Positions 6,123-31,771 are shown, counted from the stretch's first letter. The stretch is 64,000 nt of DNA from an uncultured Gammaproteobacteria bacterium (GCA_964394855.1 CAYMZD010000002.1:60575-124574); one strand, 5' to 3'. Made by a program: numbers and translations. Notes: generated from the sequence alone by a model not told the origin.

Positions 6123-7900
6123 CAGCTATTTTTCCCCTGCAATCTGGTTTTAATGGTTGTCCTAAACTCTAGATATTTTCCCAACATTAAAGTAGTTTGG
6201 GCATCAATAGCAGGTAGGGAAGCAATAGTCACCAGCACAATAGGTACCAACAGCCATTGGAAATATGAGAAAAACTTTTTTATCAAAGACCAATTGGGGG
6301 GTCTTTTGGGAATAGTTTTTTCATGAACATAGATGGTGGAAAAAAGCCCCAAAAAGGCAATGGTTAAAACCCAAGACGAAGCAATAGAGAGATTATAGGC
6401 CACGACAGATTCTGAATATTGGGGATTGATAAAACCGATTAAAACACCGCCAAAAGTAATAAAAAGTGCCAGCGTACCCCATTTTAAGTATGACCAAATT
6501 ATAAAAATTAATCGGTCGGTTTTATTCCAAAAATCTAATCGTGAGTTTTTAAAGTATTGTTTAATAATAAATGGAAGATGTTCTACGCCATAAGCCCACC
6601 TTTTAAGTTGTAAATATTGATTTTGGAAAGTTTTCAAAAGATTAACATCAACCACGGTGTCAGCGCTAATTGGTAAGTAATGAGGAATGACTTTATAATC
6701 ACCATCAAAATAATAATATGCTTTCCAGAAAAATCCGGCATCATCATTAACTTTATCAGGAATCCACAGCCCCACATCAAGTAATGATTTTAAGTTGATG
6801 GAGAGGGAGGAAAAGTTGATATATTTATCGCTCCCCACCATTTCTGATATTTGCCAAAAGGCAGTGCCAGAGGCAATGACCCGCATTGGGGCAGGAGCTT
6901 GCCAGTAGTTGTTGTAATATAAAAATACTCCGGTAAAAGAACGTTTATCCCGTTCATTCTCTGGGGTTTTTAAGTATTTATGTAAAGCCCCTGCTAAAAA
7001 TTGAGGATGAATCACAAAATCAGCATCCAGAGTGGTCACAAAAACATCCTCTGGTTTGATACCCAGTTTTTTGAATTCTGAAACGGCATTTTTGATCATC
7101 CAGTTTCTGTTAGTTCCTGGTCCTGGCACCTCACCTGATAGCCCAAAAGGGTGTATGGTGGTGAAAACTCCGCCAATTTTTTTAGAGTACTTTGCTAAAT
7201 ATTTCTTAGTTTCATTGATTTTTTTAAGATCATCCCTCTGCTCAAAACCAACAGCCAAAAAAAGTTTTTTCTGGGGATAACTGGAATGGGCAATAGCCTC
7301 AAAAGCAGGAGCTAAAACCTCCAGAGGCTCTTTATAAGTGGGTAAAAGTAAGAGGTGGTAGTATTTTTCCCACTGGCGAGGAAAATCTTGTTCTAGTTCT
7401 TCTAGCCAATTTTGTTTGGCTGCCCAGGTAAATTTTTTATAACCTATAAAAATTAAAATGGCAATTTTTAAAGAGTTAAAAAGCCAATAGATGTCAGCTA
7501 ATATGATTAGGTAGGCAACAGCAAAAGGTAGGGTGAATGAAAGCCAAATGGGAGAGGTTAAAGCTAACCAAGTTAAGGCCCCAGGTAGGATTTCCAATAA
7601 ACGCTCTACTTTAGTGTCATGTTTTTGAATAAAATCTCTTTCTATTTTTTCAGAGAAAAGATACCGTTCGGATAAAAGATGATGGGCAATGATCCCCACG
7701 CCTGCTCCTACCAGAAAATAACCAGCCAAAATATTTAAAGGGTAGCCTAAACCTGGTCCCCAAATTCCCAAAATTATTCCAGCCAAAATGGAAAACAGTC
7801 CCACTAGAGAGTGAAGTTTGATCTTGACAACTTGTTTAAAAAGGGCAGCAAGGTAAAAAAATGATAACAGTCCAATTAAAAGCGCCAAAAGAAATCTCAT
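6122..7900 (-). CDS. processive family-2 glycosyltransferase (cellulose/chitin/hyaluronan-synthase-like) with N- and C-terminal TM bundles
   Basis: GT2 DxD motif (TTLDADFVIHP), SADTVVD, and the hallmark processive-synthase motif QLKRW (QxxRW); TM helices on both flanks of the catalytic domain. Confidence 0.6.
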   Translation of the reverse strand: MRFLLALLIGLLSFFYLAALFKQVVKIKLHSLVGLFSILAGIILGIWGPGLGYPLNILAGYFLVGAGVGIIAHHLLSERYLFSEKIERDFIQKHDTKVERLLEILPGALTWLALTSPIWLSFTLPFAVAYLIILADIYWLFNSLKIAILIFIGYKKFTWAAKQNWLEELEQDFPRQWEKYYHLLLLPTYKEPLEVLAPAFEAIAHSSYPQKKLFLAVGFEQRDDLKKINETKKYLAKYSKKIGGVFTTIHPFGLSGEVPGPGTNRNWMIKNAVSEFKKLGIKPEDVFVTTLDADFVIHPQFLAGALHKYLKTPENERDKRSFTGVFLYYNNYWQAPAPMRVIASGTAFWQISEMVGSDKYINFSSLSINLKSLLDVGLWIPDKVNDDAGFFWKAYYYFDGDYKVIPHYLPISADTVVDVNLLKTFQNQYLQLKRWAYGVEHLPFIIKQYFKNSRLDFWNKTDRLIFIIWSYLKWGTLALFITFGGVLIGFINPQYSESVVAYNLSIASSWVLTIAFLGLFSTIYVHEKTIPKRPPNWSLIKKFFSYFQWLLVPIVLVTIASLPAIDAQTTLMLGKYLEFRTTIKTRLQGKNS

Positions 7901-8676
7901 GCTGAAAGTAAGTTTACAACATTTGTAGTTGTTTGTCTTGCCAGCTCTTCCAAGGAGAGATTTTTAATATGCGCCACCACTTTAGCAGCTTCCACTACAT
8001 TGGCCGGTTCATTGCGTTTACCCCTTTGTATTTGTGGGGGTAAAAAGGGGGAGTCTGTTTCCAAAACTATTCTATCTAAGGGTAATAATTTTATAGCTTC
8101 AAGTAAATAATCGTTTTTTGGGTAGGTGATATTGCAGGCAAAGGAAACTAAGAAGTTGGTGGAATTAAGAGCTAGATTAGTGGTAGATGGTAAACCGCTG
8201 TAGCAGTGGTAAATTCCAAAATGATCTTTGGTCATTTGCAAAACCTCATCCCAGGCATCTCGACAGTGGACTATTAAAGGTAAATGCAATTTTTTGGCCA
8301 AGTCAATTTGGGCTTGAAAAAGTTTTCTTTGTGCTTTCTTAGTTTGTTCGTCAATATCCTTATAATCCAAACCGCATTCTCCCACAGCCACAACTTTCTC
8401 CGGTGCACTGCGGTATATTTCCTCAAGTAGTTTACCCTGAGCGAGTGGAGCGAGTCGAAGGGCTTCATGGGGATGAATGCCAATGGTGGATAAAACTCGT
8501 AATCCTTTTGGCCAAGGATAATTTTTTACTTGTTCCAGGGCTTTTCGGGAAGTTTTAATATCAACCCCTATATTAATAATGTAGGAAACCTTGGCCGCCA
8601 CAGCTTTTTTAATTACCTCATCAAAATCATCTTTGAATGAATCCCAATATAAATGCGCATGTGTATCAGCTAACAT
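7897..8676 (-). CDS. tatD: TatD-family metal-dependent hydrolase/DNase
   Basis: MLADTHAHLYWDSF N-terminus (HxH); IGIHPHEA, VAVGECGLDY and ETDSPFL motifs typical of TatD. Confidence 0.8.
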   Translation of the reverse strand: MLADTHAHLYWDSFKDDFDEVIKKAVAAKVSYIINIGVDIKTSRKALEQVKNYPWPKGLRVLSTIGIHPHEALRLAPLAQGKLLEEIYRSAPEKVVAVGECGLDYKDIDEQTKKAQRKLFQAQIDLAKKLHLPLIVHCRDAWDEVLQMTKDHFGIYHCYSGLPSTTNLALNSTNFLVSFACNITYPKNDYLLEAIKLLPLDRIVLETDSPFLPPQIQRGKRNEPANVVEAAKVVAHIKNLSLEELARQTTTNVVNLLSA

Positions 8677-8678
8677 AA

Positions 8679-8993
8679 TTAAGGATTTTTAATTATTTCC
8701 TCCAGAATTATTCTTTTTTTGAATTCTCCGCGATCAATAGCTTTTTGCTGTTTTATTTTTTGTAATTTAGTTGGATTAATATTTTTAAGTTTACAGATGG
8801 CATCAATAACTTCTAGCATATCTGCCAGTTCTTCAGGATTTTGTTCTTTTAAAAATTCCTCAACCTCTTCCTGCAACTTTTCCAGTAGTTTTTTTCTGTA
8901 TTCTTCATTGTTGGCAATATGAGTTATTGGGGTTTGCCCGTCTGCTTTGATAATTTCCGGAATTTTATCTCTGACTAATTTATTATATTTCAT
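8679..8993 (-). CDS. MazG-like small NTP pyrophosphohydrolase (house-cleaning NTPase family)
   Basis: ~100-aa all-helical protein; NKLVRDKIPEII N-terminus and EELADMLEVIDAI pattern typical of the short MazG-like/PRA-PH-like family. Confidence 0.5.
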   Translation of the reverse strand: MKYNKLVRDKIPEIIKADGQTPITHIANNEEYRKKLLEKLQEEVEEFLKEQNPEELADMLEVIDAICKLKNINPTKLQKIKQQKAIDRGEFKKRIILEEIIKNP

Positions 8994-10791: not shown

Positions 10792-12900
10792 TCATGCTCC
10801 AATGACTTTAAATGTGGAGCCTTCTGCATTTTTAGAAACTTCAATACGGACAGGGAACTCCTCTTTTAGCTCATCTAGATGGGTAATAATAATAATTTTT
10901 TCAAAATCATTTTTGATGGCATCTAAAACTTCCACAATTCTCGATCTTCCTTGGGTATCTTGAGTGCCAAAACCCTCATCAATCACCAAAAACTGCAGTC
11001 TGGCCCCGGCTCTTCTTGTTAAAAGCTTAGAGATGGCCAAGCGAATGGCAAAATTAACCCTGAAAGCTTCCCCTCCGGAATATAAATCATAGGGTCTTTC
11101 ACCCATCTCATCGGAAATAATAATATCCAGAGTCTCAATAATATTATCTGTGGTTTTCCCCTCGCGTTGAGTTAAAAAAGCCACTTTCATCCGGCCTTCT
11201 GTCAGTTTATCGAGCAGTTTATTAGCCTCATCCTCAATTTCAGGAATGGCAGTTTCTATAATCATGGCCTGGATGCCTTTTTTGCCAAAAGCCAAAGAGA
11301 GTTCCTCGAAATTTTGTTTTTCTTTTTCGAGAATTATTCTTTCTTCTATTTTTTGTTTTTGTAATTTTTGAAGCTGCATTGATCTGGATATTAACTCCGT
11401 TGCCTGACCAAGTAAGTTTCTGGTTTGTTTCTCCTCTGCTTGCAAATCGTTCAGCCTTCTTTCTTTTTCTGTCAAATCCCCCTCTGTTTTGGGAAGCTTT
11501 TCAAGTTCCAGCTGCAACTTTTCCACTTGTAATTTTTTATTTTTAAATAAATTAAGTAATTCTTCTCTGGTCTTTTTTTCCGTTTCCAAAGAGGCTCTAT
11601 CTTGTAAAATCTGCTCTTTTTGTTTTTGCAAATTTTCCAGTCCTTTCAAAGAGTTTTCCAAATCTTGAAGTTTTTGGGAATCAACTACCAAGGTAGATAA
11701 CACTTTTTCTATTTTTTTAATTTCCTGTTCTTCTTTTTCTGTTTTGATTTCTTGCAACTTTTTTCCTAGTCCCTCTTTCCTAGTTCCTAGTTCCTTGTGG
11801 ACTTTGTGCTTTAAATCTTTGCCAATTTCCTGCCCGCAAGTGGGGCATTTGGCACCCGGCATTGCCAGTTTTTTTAACTCATCTTGCAAATCATCCAATT
11901 GTTTTTGCAGGGTTTTTTTCTGCTCCAATTTAACATTTAGCCCTCCCTGCCAATCTGATAACTCTTTTTGCAGCTGCAGCTTTTCGTTCTGTTTTTTTCT
12001 TAAATCTTCCAGTTCTGTTTTTTCTTTTTGCAATTTTTCTATTCTATGTTCTATCTCTTCAAAATTCTTAATTCTTAAGTTCAAATTCTGAATTCTATTT
12101 GCTCTTTCCTTTCCCTGTGCTATAATCTGTTCCAGCTCTTTTTGCTGATCCTCCAAATTTTGCACAGTCTCTTTTTGTTTTTGTAAATTTTTTAAATCCT
12201 CTTCCAAAAGCTTAATGCTACCTTCAATTCCTTTAACTTTTTCTGTTTGTTCATGCAAGGTCTTCTCTCTCTCCTCTTTTTGCGATAGTTCCGCCTCAAT
12301 TTCCAATAGCTGATATTCCAAAAGTTTTAAGCTGTTTGCGGTCTCTTTAACTTTTTCCCGGGCACGCTCTTCCAGCTGGTCATAATGAGACAAACCCAAA
12401 ATATCTGCCAAAACTCTTTTTCTATCTGTTGGCCCTTTGGTGGTAAATTCATCGGCATGGCCCTGGCGTAAAAAGGAGGAGTTGGTAAAAGTTTCAAAGG
12501 AAAGATGAAGTGCATCAATTATTTTTTGCTGGGTAGTTTTAATGGTACCTTCGGTTAAATTATTTGCTTGTGGTGAGCCTGTCGAACCACTCCAAAATTC
12601 CAAATTACTGGAACCGCCACGGATTAAGCTTCTTTGCCTTTTGACAATAAATTCATGGCCATCCAGTTCAAAGGAGAACTCCACATACATTTCCTTGGCT
12701 CCCAGATGAATAAGCTCATCTGATGAGTCCCCGGCCCTTGACCAGCCCCATAAACACCAGGTAATGGCATCCAACAAAGATGATTTGCCGGCGCCATTGG
12801 ACCCGGAAATTGCAGCCAGTTTAAATTTTGTAAATTTAAGCTCCGGCACATTTTCCCCATAACTGGTAAAATTTGATAATTTCAGTGAAATGGGTATCAT
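10792..12900 (-). CDS. sbcC: SbcC/Rad50-like DNA repair ATPase
   Basis: Walker A ISGSNGAGKSSLLDAITWCLWG; long coiled-coil with central CPTCGQEI zinc-hook; C-terminal signature/Walker B (LQFLVIDEGFGTQD); adjacent to sbcD. Confidence 0.8.
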   Translation of the reverse strand: MIPISLKLSNFTSYGENVPELKFTKFKLAAISGSNGAGKSSLLDAITWCLWGWSRAGDSSDELIHLGAKEMYVEFSFELDGHEFIVKRQRSLIRGGSSNLEFWSGSTGSPQANNLTEGTIKTTQQKIIDALHLSFETFTNSSFLRQGHADEFTTKGPTDRKRVLADILGLSHYDQLEERAREKVKETANSLKLLEYQLLEIEAELSQKEEREKTLHEQTEKVKGIEGSIKLLEEDLKNLQKQKETVQNLEDQQKELEQIIAQGKERANRIQNLNLRIKNFEEIEHRIEKLQKEKTELEDLRKKQNEKLQLQKELSDWQGGLNVKLEQKKTLQKQLDDLQDELKKLAMPGAKCPTCGQEIGKDLKHKVHKELGTRKEGLGKKLQEIKTEKEEQEIKKIEKVLSTLVVDSQKLQDLENSLKGLENLQKQKEQILQDRASLETEKKTREELLNLFKNKKLQVEKLQLELEKLPKTEGDLTEKERRLNDLQAEEKQTRNLLGQATELISRSMQLQKLQKQKIEERIILEKEKQNFEELSLAFGKKGIQAMIIETAIPEIEDEANKLLDKLTEGRMKVAFLTQREGKTTDNIIETLDIIISDEMGERPYDLYSGGEAFRVNFAIRLAISKLLTRRAGARLQFLVIDEGFGTQDTQGRSRIVEVLDAIKNDFEKIIIITHLDELKEEFPVRIEVSKNAEGSTFKVIGA

Positions 12901-26649: not shown

Positions 26650-28401
26650 ATGAATATTCGAAATTTTTCCATCATTGCTCATGTTGATCATGGGAAGTCC
26701 ACGTTGTGTGATCGGTTTTTGGAAATTTGTCATGCTGTGGAACCTAGCAAGATGAAACCCCAGCTGTTAGATTCACTGGCCCTGGAGCGCGAGCGCGGTA
26801 TTACTATTAAGTTAGCTCCCGTTCGTTTGCGGCACATTCTGAATTCTGAATTCTACATTCTCAATTTAATTGATACTCCCGGGCATGTAGATTTTTCCTA
26901 TGAGGTCTCTCGCAGCTTAGCTGCAGTTGAGGGAGCCATACTTTTAGTGGATGCCACTGCCGGAGTGCAAGCTCAAACCTTATCTCATGGTCTGGCAGCG
27001 CTGGATCAAGGGCTAATTTTAATTCCGGTGATTAACAAAATAGATTTACCCAATGCGGATATTGAAAGCGTTAAAAAACAATTAATAGATACCTTTGGAT
27101 TTAAAGATATGGAGATAATGCTCGCTTCCGGGAAAACAGGACAGGGAGTTGAAGAAATATTGCAGGCAGTGATAGAACGTATTCCTTCCCCGAAATCTTC
27201 GGGTGAATACCTAAGGACTTTAATTTTTGACTCATTTTTTGATTCATTTAAGGGGGTTATTGCAGAGGTGAGAGTGGTTGATGGCGAGGTGCCTAAAGTG
27301 GGGTCAAAAATAAAATTTCTGGGAACAGGTATAGAAGGGCAGATTTTGGAAATGGGAGTTTTCACTCCGGAAATGAAGCCGGTAGAAAAATTAGTAGCCG
27401 GGGAAATTGGTTATATTGCCACGGGGATAAAAACTCCTGATTTGGTTAGAGTGGGAGATACTATTTCCACAGATTTAGACGTTTCCCCTTTGCAAGGTTA
27501 TAGAGAAGTTAAGCCCATGGTATATGTTGGGCTTTATCCGATTGATCAGGATGATTTTTTTAATTTAAAAGAAGCGCTGTCCAAATTTAGATTAAATGAT
27601 CCGGCATTTAGTTTTGAAGTTGAGAAATCCCAAGCTTTGGGGTCGGGTTTTCGGTGCGGGTTTTTAGGGTTACTCCACGGCGAAGTGGTGCAAGAAAGAT
27701 TAAGAGGGGAATTTGGAGTTGATTTAATTGCCACGGCGCCGTCGGTTGAATATCTAATGGATGGAAAAGTGATTGATAATCCGGCTGATTTTGATCCAAC
27801 TGCCAAGACAGTCAAAGAACCCTGGGTTAATTTAAAAGCATTTTCCCCTCAAAATTTTATTGGTCAGGTAATGGAGCTTGTGCAGGATAAAAGGGGAAAA
27901 CTGCAGGATATGCAATATTTTGCTTCACAAGTGGAGCTAAAATTTGAAATGCCACTTTCAGAGATGATTACTGATTTTTATGATAAGCTGAAGAGTGTTT
28001 CTTCCGGTTTTGCATCTTTGGACTGGGAATTTTTGGAATTTAGAGAAGTGGAGGCGGTCAGGGTGGATATTTTAGTGGGAGGGGAAAAGGTTGATGCTCT
28101 ATCCACGATTGTTTTTAAACCAAAAGCAGAATCCGCCGGCCGGCGGATGGTGGAGAAATTAAAAGAGGTGCTGCCGCGGCAAAATTTTGAAGTGGCTATT
28201 CAGGCCACAATCGGTTCCACGATTGTGGCAAGAGAAACTCTGGGGGCATACAGGAAAGATGTCACAGCTAAATTATATGGAGGGGATAGAACCAGAAAGG
28301 ATAAATTGCTGGAAAAACAAAAAAAGGGCAAGAAAAAAATGAAAATGATAGGCAAAGTGGAAATCCCCCAAGAGGCATTTTTGAGTATTTTAAAAAGTTG
28401 A
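26650..28401 (+). CDS. lepA: elongation factor 4 (LepA)
   Basis: G1 [21 protein letters not shown]; LepA-specific C-terminal domain (GGDRTRKDKLLEKQKKGKK). Carries a small coding 7-mer tandem repeat (26838-26866). Its last ~19 codons are duplicated 0.8 kb downstream. Confidence 0.9.
   Translation: MNIRNFSIIAHVDHGKSTLCDRFLEICHAVEPSKMKPQLLDSLALERERGITIKLAPVRLRHILNSEFYILNLIDTPGHVDFSYEVSRSLAAVEGAILLVDATAGVQAQTLSHGLAALDQGLILIPVINKIDLPNADIESVKKQLIDTFGFKDMEIMLASGKTGQGVEEILQAVIERIPSPKSSGEYLRTLIFDSFFDSFKGVIAEVRVVDGEVPKVGSKIKFLGTGIEGQILEMGVFTPEMKPVEKLVAGEIGYIATGIKTPDLVRVGDTISTDLDVSPLQGYREVKPMVYVGLYPIDQDDFFNLKEALSKFRLNDPAFSFEVEKSQALGSGFRCGFLGLLHGEVVQERLRGEFGVDLIATAPSVEYLMDGKVIDNPADFDPTAKTVKEPWVNLKAFSPQNFIGQVMELVQDKRGKLQDMQYFASQVELKFEMPLSEMITDFYDKLKSVSSGFASLDWEFLEFREVEAVRVDILVGGEKVDALSTIVFKPKAESAGRRMVEKLKEVLPRQNFEVAIQATIGSTIVARETLGAYRKDVTAKLYGGDRTRKDKLLEKQKKGKKKMKMIGKVEIPQEAFLSILKS
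28341..28399 (+). repeat. direct repeat copy A (lepA 3' end)
   Basis: 59 bp: gaaaatg + 9 divergent nt + a 43-bp perfect match (gtggaaatcccccaagaggcatttttgagtattttaaaaagtt) to 29159-29201. Confidence 0.85.
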
Positions 28402-28446
28402 CCCATTCGATTGCACTCAGGGTCAATACTGAATGGAATTGAAGTA

Positions 28447-28474
28447 TTGACAAAAGTAATGTATAGTGTATAAT
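28447..28474 (+). promoter_or_regulatory. consensus sigma70 promoter TTGACA-16-TATAAT driving the TA cassette; predicted leaderless transcript
   Basis: ttgaca(28447-52), 16-nt spacer, tataat(28469-74). The antitoxin ATG at 28481 lies 7 nt after the -10. Confidence 0.5.
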
Positions 28475-28480
28475 GTATAT

Positions 28481-28735
28481 ATGATCAGGAAACAATTTTA
28501 TGTGACTCCGGAAATAGACAGAGCGCTACTTATTTTAGCTAGAAAAGAAGGTAAATCTGTAGCAGAAGTTCATAGAGAAATTCTTAAAAAGGGACTCCGA
28601 ACCAAAAGTATTAAAGCTAATCCCGCAAGCGTTTTATTTAAAATAACCGGAATCGCCAAAAAAGGACCCAAGGATTTATCCGCTAATCTATTTGACTATC
28701 TTTATGGAGATAAATCCCCTAATTATGGCAAGTAA
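28481..28735 (+). CDS. ribbon-helix-helix antitoxin (CopG/VapB-like)
   Basis: MIRKQFYVTPEIDRALLILARKEGKSVAEVHREILKKGL is an RHH fold signature. The track start at 28466 lies inside the -10, so the start is moved to 28481. 11-nt overlap with the downstream PIN gene. Confidence 0.55.
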   Translation: MIRKQFYVTPEIDRALLILARKEGKSVAEVHREILKKGLRTKSIKANPASVLFKITGIAKKGPKDLSANLFDYLYGDKSPNYGK

Positions 28736-29144
28736 AAAATTACTAGTTGACGCGGATGCTTTCGTAGCCTTGGTAAATTCGATTGACTCAAACCATCAAA
28801 AAGCCAAATTATTGAGAGATCAAATTAGCGATCAAGAGTTTTCATTGATGACTTCAGATCCTGCCTTTGGAGAGGCGATTACCGTCATTAGTCAAGATAC
28901 TGGTTTGGAATCAGCTACTCTGTTTGCAGAAGAAACATTAGTCAGTCAAGTAGAGATAATTGAAGTAGATGCCAGTTTACGAAGAAAAGCCTTGGATATT
29001 TTTAAAAAACAAACCTCCAAAAATTCCCGTTTTACAGACTGTATTAATATGGCAATTATGGAGGAGAAAAAATTAAATACCATTTTTAGTTTTGATGTTC
29101 AATACAAAAAGAACAAATTTAAAAGATTTGGGATAGATAAATGA
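28725..29144 (+). CDS. PIN-domain toxin (VapC-like ribonuclease)
   Basis: Acidic quartet consistent with the PIN fold (LLVDADAFV ... E ... TDCINMAIMEE ... FSFD); start at MASKK overlapping the antitoxin stop. Confidence 0.55.
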   Translation: MASKKLLVDADAFVALVNSIDSNHQKAKLLRDQISDQEFSLMTSDPAFGEAITVISQDTGLESATLFAEETLVSQVEIIEVDASLRRKALDIFKKQTSKNSRFTDCINMAIMEEKKLNTIFSFDVQYKKNKFKRFGIDK

Positions 29145-29201
29145 AAATGGTGGGTCTGGTGGAAATCCCCCAAGAGGCATTTTTGAGTATTTTAAAAAGT
29201 T
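29143..29201 (+). repeat. direct repeat copy B (orphan duplicate of the lepA 3' end, in-frame relic MVGLVEIPQEAFLSILKS-stop)
   Basis: Same 59-bp unit; the 43-bp core is identical to 28357-28399; ends with a TAA stop at 29201-29203. Confidence 0.85.
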
Positions 29202-29632
29202 AATAATTGTTTATTGTATCCGAATAGGGGTCCATAAATTAGTTCTATTCTGGTAGGGGTTAATTTATACCATGATTCATCTTGATCGAGAACCTCACCT
29301 TTCTTTATAGGAGGAACTTTACCTCTTTTAATTCTATGTTTAATGGCTAGTTCTAAAATATCTCCTTCGATTTTTTTAGCCAGACCCTCGATTTGTAGTC
29401 CCATTTCTTTGCCTGGTTTTTCTTTGACTGTGATTGTTCCAGCTACTTGCGGGTGGAATAAAATTGCTTTTGAGTGGCGTCGACTAGTTTGCGAAATCCA
29501 ATAGATATTGAAGTTGTCATCGTAGATATAAATTACATCAGCTACCCAAACCCCGCCTCCATCAACAGTCCCCAAACTCATTAAATAACCTTTATCTAAA
29601 ATTTCTTTAATTAATTTTTTGATATTTTTCAC
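29192..29632 (-). CDS. pyridoxamine 5'-phosphate oxidase-like FMN-binding split-barrel protein
   Basis: ~145 aa with a PNPOx-like/general-stress-protein-26 pattern (YLMSLGTVDGGGVWVADVIYIY). Confidence 0.45.
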   Translation of the reverse strand: MKNIKKLIKEILDKGYLMSLGTVDGGGVWVADVIYIYDDNFNIYWISQTSRRHSKAILFHPQVAGTITVKEKPGKEMGLQIEGLAKKIEGDILELAIKHRIKRGKVPPIKKGEVLDQDESWYKLTPTRIELIYGPLFGYNKQLLTF

Positions 29633-31747: not shown

Positions 31748-31771
31748 CCCTTCGATTAACTCAGGGCAAAT

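Follow-up and report, generated by a model that had tools for sequence, protein, structure and literature searches.

A VapBC module between two copies of the lepA terminus: a candidate case of terminus displacement at a recurrent acquisition hotspot in Candidate Phyla Radiation bacteria

How did a toxin–antitoxin (TA) operon come to lie between two copies of the end of lepA, with lepA itself intact? The question is raised by a 64-kb stretch of DNA, here called the window (the whole stretch analysed), which is part of contig JACQIZ010000003.1 of the Candidatus Daviesbacteria metagenome-assembled genome (MAG) GCA_016198205.1, from the Microgenomates within the Candidate Phyla Radiation (CPR). 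In it, the gene of elongation factor 4, lepA, is followed by a VapBC-type module and then by a second, displaced copy of its own last codons, termed a relic. Comparison with related loci shows the lepA terminus to be a recombinase-free hotspot of repeated gene acquisition in two or more CPR lineages. With a probability of roughly 55%, the module would have been acquired horizontally at this hotspot, by recombination anchored in lepA and displacement of the resident terminus. The comparison covers 80 lepA loci taken from GTDB species representatives and a further 31 metagenome loci encoding PIN homologs; the Daviesbacteria-type set comprises 66 loci, tails were compared over 70 loci, and shared tracts were surveyed over 69 lepA genes. 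Loci are designated by L numbers where they have to be told apart.

The features of the window on which the question turns are the following.

26650–28401, plus strand: lepA (elongation factor 4), 583 amino acids (aa), intact; from the open reading frame (ORF) list, with Pfam domains GTP_EFTU, EFG_C and LepA_C.
28337–28401, plus strand: functional lepA terminus, repeat copy 1, with TGA stop at 28399–28401; from the repeat search.
28357–28399, plus strand: 43-nucleotide (nt) block identical to 29159–29201; from direct comparison of the copies.
29139–29203, plus strand: relic lepA terminus, repeat copy 2, with TAA stop at 29201–29203; from the repeat and tail profile searches.
29192–29632, minus strand: PNPOx-like gene, convergent with lepA, its 3' end overlapping the relic by 12 nt; from ORF and domain annotation.

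The LepA protein of the window is identical to an NCBI Daviesbacteria protein, and its functional tail is formed by the final ~22 codons of the gene. In the repeat search, 28337–28399 recurs at 29139–29201 (63 nt, 90% identity, spacing 802), and this is the sole strong long direct repeat within the 64 kb. The repeat contains a 43-nt core, GTGGAAATCCCCCAAGAGGCATTTTTGAGTATTTTAAAAAGTT, which is present exactly twice in the window (28357–28399 and 29159–29201) against an expectation of 0 from 100 shuffles. The core is separated from the AAATGAAAATG match by 9 nt (28348–28356), six of which differ between the copies, and the stop codons are unlike, TGA in copy 1 and TAA in copy 2. Over the core positions, independent functional tails agree at 43 of 43 nt in none of 2415 pairs (mean 31.8, maximum 41). 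The identical block is a crossover or gene-conversion tract between both tails. The relic reads MKMVGLVEIPQEAFLSILKS, with Leu where functional tails usually carry Lys, Arg, Asn, Ser or Gly; Leu occupies the same tail position in one functional tail, that of L086. The window relic is identical at 60 of 63 positions to the relic right of the PIN gene in metagenome locus L083, with CTG in the window at the codon that is CGG (Arg) in L083. The overlap between the relic and the PNPOx-like gene probably represents the original junction of lepA with its downstream gene; similar overlaps of a tail end with a convergent gene are found where ParE/RelE genes lie beside tails and in the Saccharibacteria locus L078.

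Duplicated termini are not confined to the window. A search with an nhmmer nucleotide profile of the 66-nt tail and a peptide regular expression, covering 924 kb in six frames, returned 22 non-functional tails, all on the plus strand downstream of lepA and none elsewhere. At least one relic is present in ~12 of the 66 Daviesbacteria-type loci, namely the window, L003, L004, L011, L013 (weak), L016, L026, L028, L038, L041, L045 and L046, and the metagenome loci L083–L085 and L102–L104 are also relic-bearing. The phenomenon is present in a second CPR phylum: in a Saccharibacteria MAG (L078, 5908–7598), the relic EAFLEALKVD-stop is found 1.7 kb beyond lepA and differs at four positions, each of them synonymous. 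This relic is fused to a gene-start fragment of a nucleotidyltransferase (MKIIVFAGGIGK), and its end overlaps the convergent downstream gene. Every relic extends to the stop codon, while the 5' limits fall at tail positions 1, 4, 14, 17, 21, 26, 29, 33, 38 and ~43; relics are 24–66 nt long and the inserts span 0.04–3 kb. The cargo between lepA and the relics is varied.

VapBC: window, L016, L083 and L084; also L093 and L086, without relic.
ParE/RelE-Phd, minus strand: L003, L004, L045, L046 and L084.
GrpB: L041.
Unknown proteins: L026, L003 and L078.
2'-5' ligase-like and DinB-like proteins: L013.
A 43–46-nt hairpin-bearing spacer alone: L011, L038 and the first relic of L003 and L084.

Some loci carry serial arrays. 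L084 reads lepA, hairpin, relic, vapBC, relic, parE-phd, relic, and L046 reads lepA, a 227-aa gene with parE-phd, relic, vapBC, parE-phd, relic. As in displacement arrays, same-orientation lepA 3' fragments lie downstream of the gene, each followed by former neighbours. The structure of tail, cargo and relic is thus peculiar neither to the window genome nor to TA cargo. The initial annotation of this DNA had seen the TA pair as a mobile agent and the duplication as its signature. This view finds no support, as relatives without TA genes or with other cargo carry two termini as well: GrpB lies between them in L041, ParE/Phd in L003, L004 and L045, unknown genes in L026 and L078, and a mere 43-nt hairpin in L011 and L038. 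Because such diverse cargo sits between lepA and the relics, the cause has to be moved from the cassette to the lepA terminus as a hotspot; the relic itself is no artefact for that.

Further details of these arrays concern the ParE/Phd pairs. In ~19 loci such a pair lies directly downstream of lepA with overlapping stop codons. L046 holds two diverged copies of a ParE/Phd cassette (6530–7222 and 7990–8668) with conserved flanks, which bracket its VapBC cassette, and a GC-rich hairpin (8835–8865) stands just before its last, frameshifted relic.

The nature of the differences between functional tails and relics speaks to their origin. Synonymous and nonsynonymous differences number 16:0 in L016, 11:0 in L038, 10:0 and 6:0 in L003 and 6:0 in L045, where random changes would be expected to be synonymous in 17% of cases. 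Relics with identical left junctions differ from one another by Ser AGY/TCN and Leu codon switches. Truncated relics are preceded by in-frame stops and are therefore untranslated. Since the differences are nearly all of this synonymous, coding type, the two copies come from different lineages: one of them was brought in from elsewhere, and each relic served as a working lepA end until recently.

Which copy is the newcomer can be read most clearly in L016, whose sister L057 is cassette-free and shares 89% LepA identity. The L057 tail matches the L016 relic at 56 of 63 positions and the L016 functional tail at 46 of 63; over the 5' 48 nt, it agrees with the relic at 46 positions and with the functional tail at 35. 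In addition, the L016 relic together with its downstream flank equals the native lepA end and flank of L015. The identity between the lepA genes of L016 and L057 falls from 86% over 300 nt to 72% over the last 93 nt (p 0.0025), while two control pairs stay flat. Because the relic matches the native end of the sister and of L015, and because lepA identity drops over the last 93 nt, the sequences indicate that the L016 relic is native and that its functional terminus is foreign from ~90 nt inside lepA and linked to the cassette. The same functional tail shares the signature CAGGAGGCATTCCT.AG...TTGACAAATAATG with L093. A foreign functional end with a breakpoint inside the gene is therefore found in L016. 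By analogy with L016 and L093, copy 1 of the window, or at least its 3' edge, may have been imported along with the cassette. Arrangements of the donor type exist and agree with this direction: GrpB directly follows the lepA stop in L061 and L033, neither of which has a relic there, and in L062 the immediate neighbour of lepA is the gene that in L011 comes after the relic.

The remainder of the initial annotation agrees well with these comparisons. The terminus is repeated, to the full extent described above with its 43-nt core and 9-nt divergent stretch; a promoter, a ribbon-helix-helix (RHH) antitoxin gene and an overlapping PIN gene lie between the copies, as detailed below; and the second copy is a displaced, untranslated lepA terminus. 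Likewise, neither integrase nor transposase lies between the repeats, which enclose two genes only, in a window free of recombinase motifs. The proposal that foreign TA DNA arrived with a replacement 3' end that kept lepA intact is supported and has its counterpart in L016, where the relic is native and the functional tail foreign.

The junctions show that tail and cassette travel together, because a TTGAC(A/T) hexamer in the promoter region of the lepA-linked VapBC cassettes contains the TGA stop of the tail to their left. This tail ends A[AG]TTGAC in five other loci (L016, L046, L083, L084 and L093); L046, L083 and L084 have a relic in this place, and the window, L016 and L093 a functional tail. 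From the hexamer to the -10 box there are 16–17 nt, a -35 spacing, in L083 and L084, and 7 or 14 nt in L016, L046 and L093. The left junction of the window is of the TTGAC type, interrupted by a hairpin insert. The right-hand joins are more varied. Between L041 and L061, tail and GrpB are ~87% identical and the lepA body 77.6%; the similarity ends where the next gene of L061 starts with ATGAAAATAATC and the L041 relic starts with ATGAAAATAATCGG, at a 12-nt microhomology. PIN genes usually end GATAAATAA, and those of the window and L083 are joined to the tail at AAAT, with GATAAATGAAAATG as the resulting sequence. The PIN gene is followed by a relic from tail position 3 in the window and L083, from ~29 in L102 and from ~33 in L084. 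In L078 the fragment of another gene's start meets the relic at GAAGC, and the junction of hairpin and relic shows a match of ~3 nt (GGA). Because related cargo has variable junctions and the L016 relic is fully native, a single fixed crossover core is irreconcilable with the loci. Relic 5' limits from position 1 to ~43 are also unlike the fixed core of attL/attR elements, and the L016 relic, native from position 1, cannot be squared with a core located in the last 24 nt.

Evidence of recombination between species is found within lepA itself and in its cargo. L011 (4182–4300) and L038 share a 119-nt perfect tract (lepA nt 1330–1448 of 1758) amid ~74–75% identity, and this tract is the product of recent inter-species recombination or conversion. 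A ParE/RelE-Phd unit of 593 nt is 97.5% identical between L003 (6255–6846) and L004 (5804–6396), where the lepA genes are 74% identical, which indicates very recent horizontal transfer; its left boundary falls among the last ~5 nt of a tail and its right boundary ~10 nt short of the relic. Among exact inter-species lepA tracts of at least 36 nt, 23 of 46 lie in the last ~160 nt and end ~50–120 nt before the stop (~28240–28350 in the window). They fall in an A-rich stretch encoding DRTRKDKLLEKQKKGKKKMKM, which is the best cross-species DNA homology in lepA and lies beside the hotspot. These 3'-end tracts give anchors with the length of a minimal efficient processing segment (MEPS) adjoining the terminus. 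A different idea, that the tail is an ultra-conserved portable homology arm, found no support: its synonymous-site conservation is ordinary (rank 273 of 302), save for an ATC-CCC preference.

Anchored recombination with terminus displacement, in effect homology-facilitated illegitimate recombination, is the most economical reading of all loci taken together and would proceed as follows. A donor fragment would bring a foreign lepA 3' end with its stop codon and the DNA beyond it, here vapBC with the TTGAC(A) hexamer that includes the stop. This fragment would pair homologously inside the resident lepA and recombine, and its far end would join by short (micro)homology within the resident terminus. 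In this way lepA would gain the imported terminus, and the resident terminus would be pushed downstream as an untranslated relic that still stands beside the original downstream gene. Repeated rounds would build arrays in which a tail is followed by alternating cargo and relics. An existing relic could also serve as the right-hand homology patch, so that whole units would spread by ordinary homologous recombination. In the window, two later steps would have followed: a 43-nt crossover or conversion tract that homogenised both tails, and the insertion of a 44-nt hairpin element between the lepA stop and the promoter, which duplicated TTGAC. Passage by transformation, dependence on RecA and the order of these events are presumed.

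Several observations weigh against this account. The mechanism is read from its end products, no event having been observed directly, and no relative with more than 80% LepA identity to the window was found in GTDB genomes or in a set of 5.8 billion proteins, so a true empty site is lacking. Tested over all nearest-neighbour pairs, the tails of relic-bearing loci are not significantly more divergent than those of their neighbours (p 0.43), the species being close to saturation at synonymous sites. Of four junctions examined, three carry short microhomologies, one of these weakly, and the fourth is a poor fit; save for the 12-nt case, the microhomologies are A-rich, 3–5 nt long and weak on their own, and the L102 junction gives no clean microhomology join. 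The same PIN/relic and hairpin/relic junctions occur in separate LepA clades, so that either whole units must have spread secondarily or joins must have formed more than once at one microhomology. The freedom from recombinases is that of a motif heuristic (tyrosine-recombinase box II and serine recombinases), applied to 4-kb flanks around the loci and to the 64-kb window; neither the window nor any of ~110 loci gave a match, although a recombinase could act in trans. Finally, the window shows a reciprocal pattern, with unlike 5' parts, an identical 43-nt core and unlike stops and flanks. Displacement needs an extra conversion step here, because this is the pattern of a single reciprocal crossover with a circle.

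The last point leads to the main rival. In a Campbell-type event, a circle of ~800 bp (tail, promoter and vapBC), looped out in the donor, would enter the resident tail by a single RecA crossover and leave two hybrid tails. As far as the window sequence goes, such an event fits equally well, and gene conversion after insertion is a third possibility. The circle predicts just the reciprocal arrangement seen (six of nine nt differing on the 5' side, core identical, stops and flanks unlike), dispenses with an integrase and accounts for a 43-nt identity that is unexpected between independent tails; perfect identity over 43 nt is about the length that RecA needs. The match of the 5' part of the window relic to the cassette-linked L083 relic (60/63) also favours it. 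Elsewhere it fares poorly, and overall it is unlikely: the two L016 tails share no block longer than 8 nt, and the L016 relic is native over its 5' 48 nt (46/48), the reverse of the predicted hybrid. Moreover, the 43-nt hairpin-only inserts would need circles of ~84 bp, suitable homology would be rare since tails are not unusually conserved at synonymous sites, and the circular form was not found in viral contigs. Two identical 43-nt repeats 802 nt apart would permit exact loop-out, leaving a normal lepA behind. Selection through an addictive TA module would oppose such loss, which may be the reason why TA pairs dominate the cargo.

A site-specific recombinase encoded elsewhere, integron-like or exploiting Xer, with the lepA terminus as its attachment site, is a more doubtful alternative. 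It would explain why gene 3'-end direct repeats flank the cargo with the gene restored, why serial arrays keep a single orientation and why identical junctions occur in different clades; chromosomal integrons, besides, typically carry TA cassettes. A comparison with integrons is made in PMC5361080 too. Against it stand the failure of the motif screen to find such an enzyme in the 64-kb window or ~110 loci, the L016 crossover at or upstream of tail position ~12 where many relics start at 26–43, the different right junctions of related cargo (3, ~29 and ~33 for PIN), and the absence of the tail from every viral or mobile contig searched. In a search for a phage or plasmid attP, a degenerate pattern of the lepA tail gave 0 hits in viral contigs; no cargo protein had a recombinase Pfam match (only two genes lie between the window repeats), and no integrase was found in ~17 relic-bearing loci. 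As for the hallmarks of an integron (intI with attI, attC palindromes), no tyrosine-recombinase motif is present near any locus and neither an Rfam family nor another structured element turned up in the region, and attC-like structures were not systematically searched. More speculative again is the idea that the CPR lepA terminus is a dedicated, orientation-specific gene-capture site, functionally an integron without integrase, served by an unrecognised trans-acting recombinase or by routine transformation-coupled anchored recombination. If this held, cassettes would be captured one after another beside an essential gene, and the order of the relics would be a chronology of these captures. As a still more speculative addition, the full-length relics could be translated as mimics of the LepA C terminus. 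Duplication in situ, through a transposase target-site duplication or replication slippage followed by divergence in place and later gene insertion, agrees with direct copies that are 802 nt apart and 90% identical. It is nevertheless very improbable and in effect excluded, because a neutrally decaying duplicate would not show synonymous-only divergence with Ser AGY/TCN switches; in addition, relics sharing one junction differ mutually in a coding-like way, the L016 functional tail is foreign relative to its sister, and no transposase is present. Least credible of all, with almost no weight, are a diversity-generating retroelement (DGR) with template and variable repeats, or an assembly artefact. 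Five of the six window differences do fall at positions with A in copy 1, and DGRs are common in CPR bacteria. Yet the locus and its neighbourhood contain no reverse transcriptase, the housekeeping gene lepA is invariant, with a tail peptide conserved in 70 loci, and the L016 differences are not limited to A positions. An assembly artefact was rejected because other species, assembled independently, show the same architecture (L016, L083 and L084).

Terminus displacement at lepA has its closest parallel in the arrays of Rhs, CdiA and type VI secretion system (T6SS) loci. Homology-facilitated illegitimate recombination was proposed for serial displacement at T6SS and Rhs loci by Kirchberger et al. 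2017 (PMC5361080), who cover Rhs/CDI orphan arrays and the effector-immunity arrays of the V. cholerae T6SS and cite Jackson 2009, Poole 2011 and Koskiniemi 2014. In both cases a conserved upstream gene segment serves as anchor, a new 3' end comes in with the genes linked to it, the older 3' fragments, together with theirs, move downstream without a change of orientation, no integrase takes part, and later spread is homologous. In the toxin arrays, the imported 3' end is a different toxin domain and diversification is the point; at lepA, in contrast, it encodes the same invariant peptide, the cargo is unrelated, the host is a CPR bacterium and the relics measure only 24–66 nt. The underlying process is known from natural transformation (de Vries & Wackernagel 2002, Prudhomme et al. 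2002 and Meier & Wackernagel 2003, as cited in PMC5361080 and PMC3240628). As far as these accounts go, it shares the one-sided homologous anchor, the microhomology join and the lack of a dedicated recombinase, but the experimental events usually delete recipient DNA between anchor and join. At lepA, where the evidence comes from sequence, the join would lie within the anchor's own 3' extension, so that the recipient terminus is duplicated instead of deleted. Integrase islands and prophages at the 3' ends of tRNA, tmRNA or protein genes resemble the lepA loci in having direct repeats that flank the insert, an element-borne copy that restores the gene and a displaced native end at the far side. 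Unlike them, the lepA loci show no integrase in the screens described and no common crossover core, and their inserts span 0.04–3 kb. A transposon target-site duplication may fit only the 44-nt hairpin insert with its 5-nt TTGAC duplication. In the searchable literature, nothing relevant was found on lepA as an attB site or on displacement at housekeeping genes, nor any earlier description of lepA-terminus displacement.

The relics document, at the level of sequence, that genes were acquired repeatedly at one housekeeping gene with no dedicated recombinase. They show which end is foreign, the order in which cargo arrived, and recombination between species whose lepA genes are ~75% identical in DNA. 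This is of interest for CPR bacteria (Patescibacteria), which are uncultured, have tiny genomes and few recognisable mobile elements, and in which gene acquisition is little understood. If anchored recombination is the mechanism, the loci would provide indirect evidence for transformation-type DNA uptake and recombination in CPR bacteria, and C-terminal displacement would extend from polymorphic toxin loci to an invariant essential gene. The accumulation of TA modules at lepA would then be explained by their resistance to loop-out between duplicated tails. For annotation, a warning follows: short in-frame ORFs with a lepA end downstream of lepA are relics, not genes.

The cargo of the window, at 28447–29144, is by its sequence a VapBC-type type II TA module (RHH antitoxin and PIN toxin), with the following parts and a secondary insertion.

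28403–28446, no strand assigned: 44-nt secondary insertion, CCATTCGATTGCACTCAGGGTC...GAAGTA, with a dispersed hairpin motif; from comparison with homologous junctions.
28447–28480, plus strand: cassette promoter and probable operator, TTGACA at 28447–28452, a 16-nt spacer and TATAAT at 28469–28474.
28481–28735, plus strand: vapB-like RHH antitoxin, 84 aa; from the family profile, the gene being called in the public record too.
28725–29144, plus strand: vapC-like PIN toxin, 139 aa; from the Pfam PIN match and the VapC20 profile.

The promoter (TTGACA-16-TATAAT, 28447–28474) matches the consensus at 12 of 12 positions, and TGTATAGTGTATAATGTATAT direct repeats extend from it to the antitoxin ATG. 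Because this ATG (28481) lies 6 nt past the -10 box and is not preceded by a Shine-Dalgarno sequence, the antitoxin mRNA is probably leaderless. VapBC cassettes in any context share TTGACA...TATAAT, TGTATAAT-type direct repeats and an ATG 6, 9 or 2 nt past the -10 box, a layout indicative of leaderless or near-leaderless mRNAs. Among 19 homologous cassette loci with upstream sequence, GTATAATGTAT-type repeats stand directly before the antitoxin ATG in 17 and ~90 nt upstream of it in the other 2, and they are seen in every genomic context. The TGTATAAT-type repeats over the -10 box are plausible as a VapB operator. The window antitoxin alone falls below Pfam thresholds; its family profile matches the RHH antitoxin VapB26 (PDB 5x3t, E 8.5e-5, residues 1–39), and Pfam RHH_1 is matched by 12 of 17 antitoxin homologs. 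The toxin matches the Pfam family PF01850 (PIN, E 6e-12) and the profile of VapC20 (PDB 5wzf, E 3.6e-12) with the acidic residues D/E/D/D aligned; D9, E50, D105 and D124 are invariant across 17 homologs. The two genes overlap by 11 nt (28725–28735), and the TGA stop of the PIN gene falls inside the AAATGAAAATG start of the relic. A PIN protein identical to that of the window is present on another contig (P0002).

Taken as a whole, the pair is probably an ordinary autoregulated, leaderless vapBC operon. As in other VapBC modules (e.g., M. tuberculosis VapBC26 and VapC20), the gene of an RHH antitoxin overlaps the PIN gene that follows it, the acidic residues of the active site are kept and the promoter overlaps a repeated putative operator. 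The window differs in its probably leaderless promoter geometry, and the lepA sub-family differs in that the TTGAC(A/T) hexamer of the promoter region holds the stop of the preceding lepA tail. More distant homologs of the cassette (57–63% identity) occur in L091 (3551–4514), L092 (3544–4514) and L111 (1–944); they have the same promoter and operator and lie between two tRNA-Met genes, not at lepA.

The 44-nt insert is flanked by a TTGAC duplication (28398–28402 and 28447–28451), so placed that both the lepA stop and the -35 box are preserved, and it is absent from the otherwise homologous junctions of L016, L093, L083 and L084. With its 5-nt duplication, it looks like a miniature inverted-repeat transposable element. 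Its predicted fold is weak (z -1.8), and Rfam gave no match in this region except a sub-threshold chance match to a snoRNA. The hairpin motif, YCCTGAG-N-TCGAAGGR, occurs about once per 35 kb and is over-represented at lepA-tail junctions. It is also found in the window at 8436–8461 (plus strand) and 31749–31765 (minus strand), and in relatives at L003 5768–5793 and 6848–6895, L011 4634–4651, L038 2755–2772 and L045 6009–6025. The window insert shares ~27 nt (ACTTCAATTYCAYTCAGTATTGACCC) with an element in L003, in opposite orientation.

Some minor features of the tails and of the window complete the picture. Full-length relics form 20-aa ORFs (window 29141–29203, L083 1806–1868 and L016 6563–6625), whose ATG overlaps the PIN stop codon (ATGA) in a geometry typical of translational coupling. 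Truncated relics elsewhere have no start codon, and the overlap is therefore probably incidental. In the Ile-Pro codons of the tail (window 28363–28368), CCC is used in 66% and ATC in 51% of 70 tails, compared with 20% and 16% gene-wide. Away from lepA, the window holds a weak family of three direct repeats (8860–8902, 11501–11543 and 11873–11915; 63–72% identity), which is probably repetitive coding sequence.

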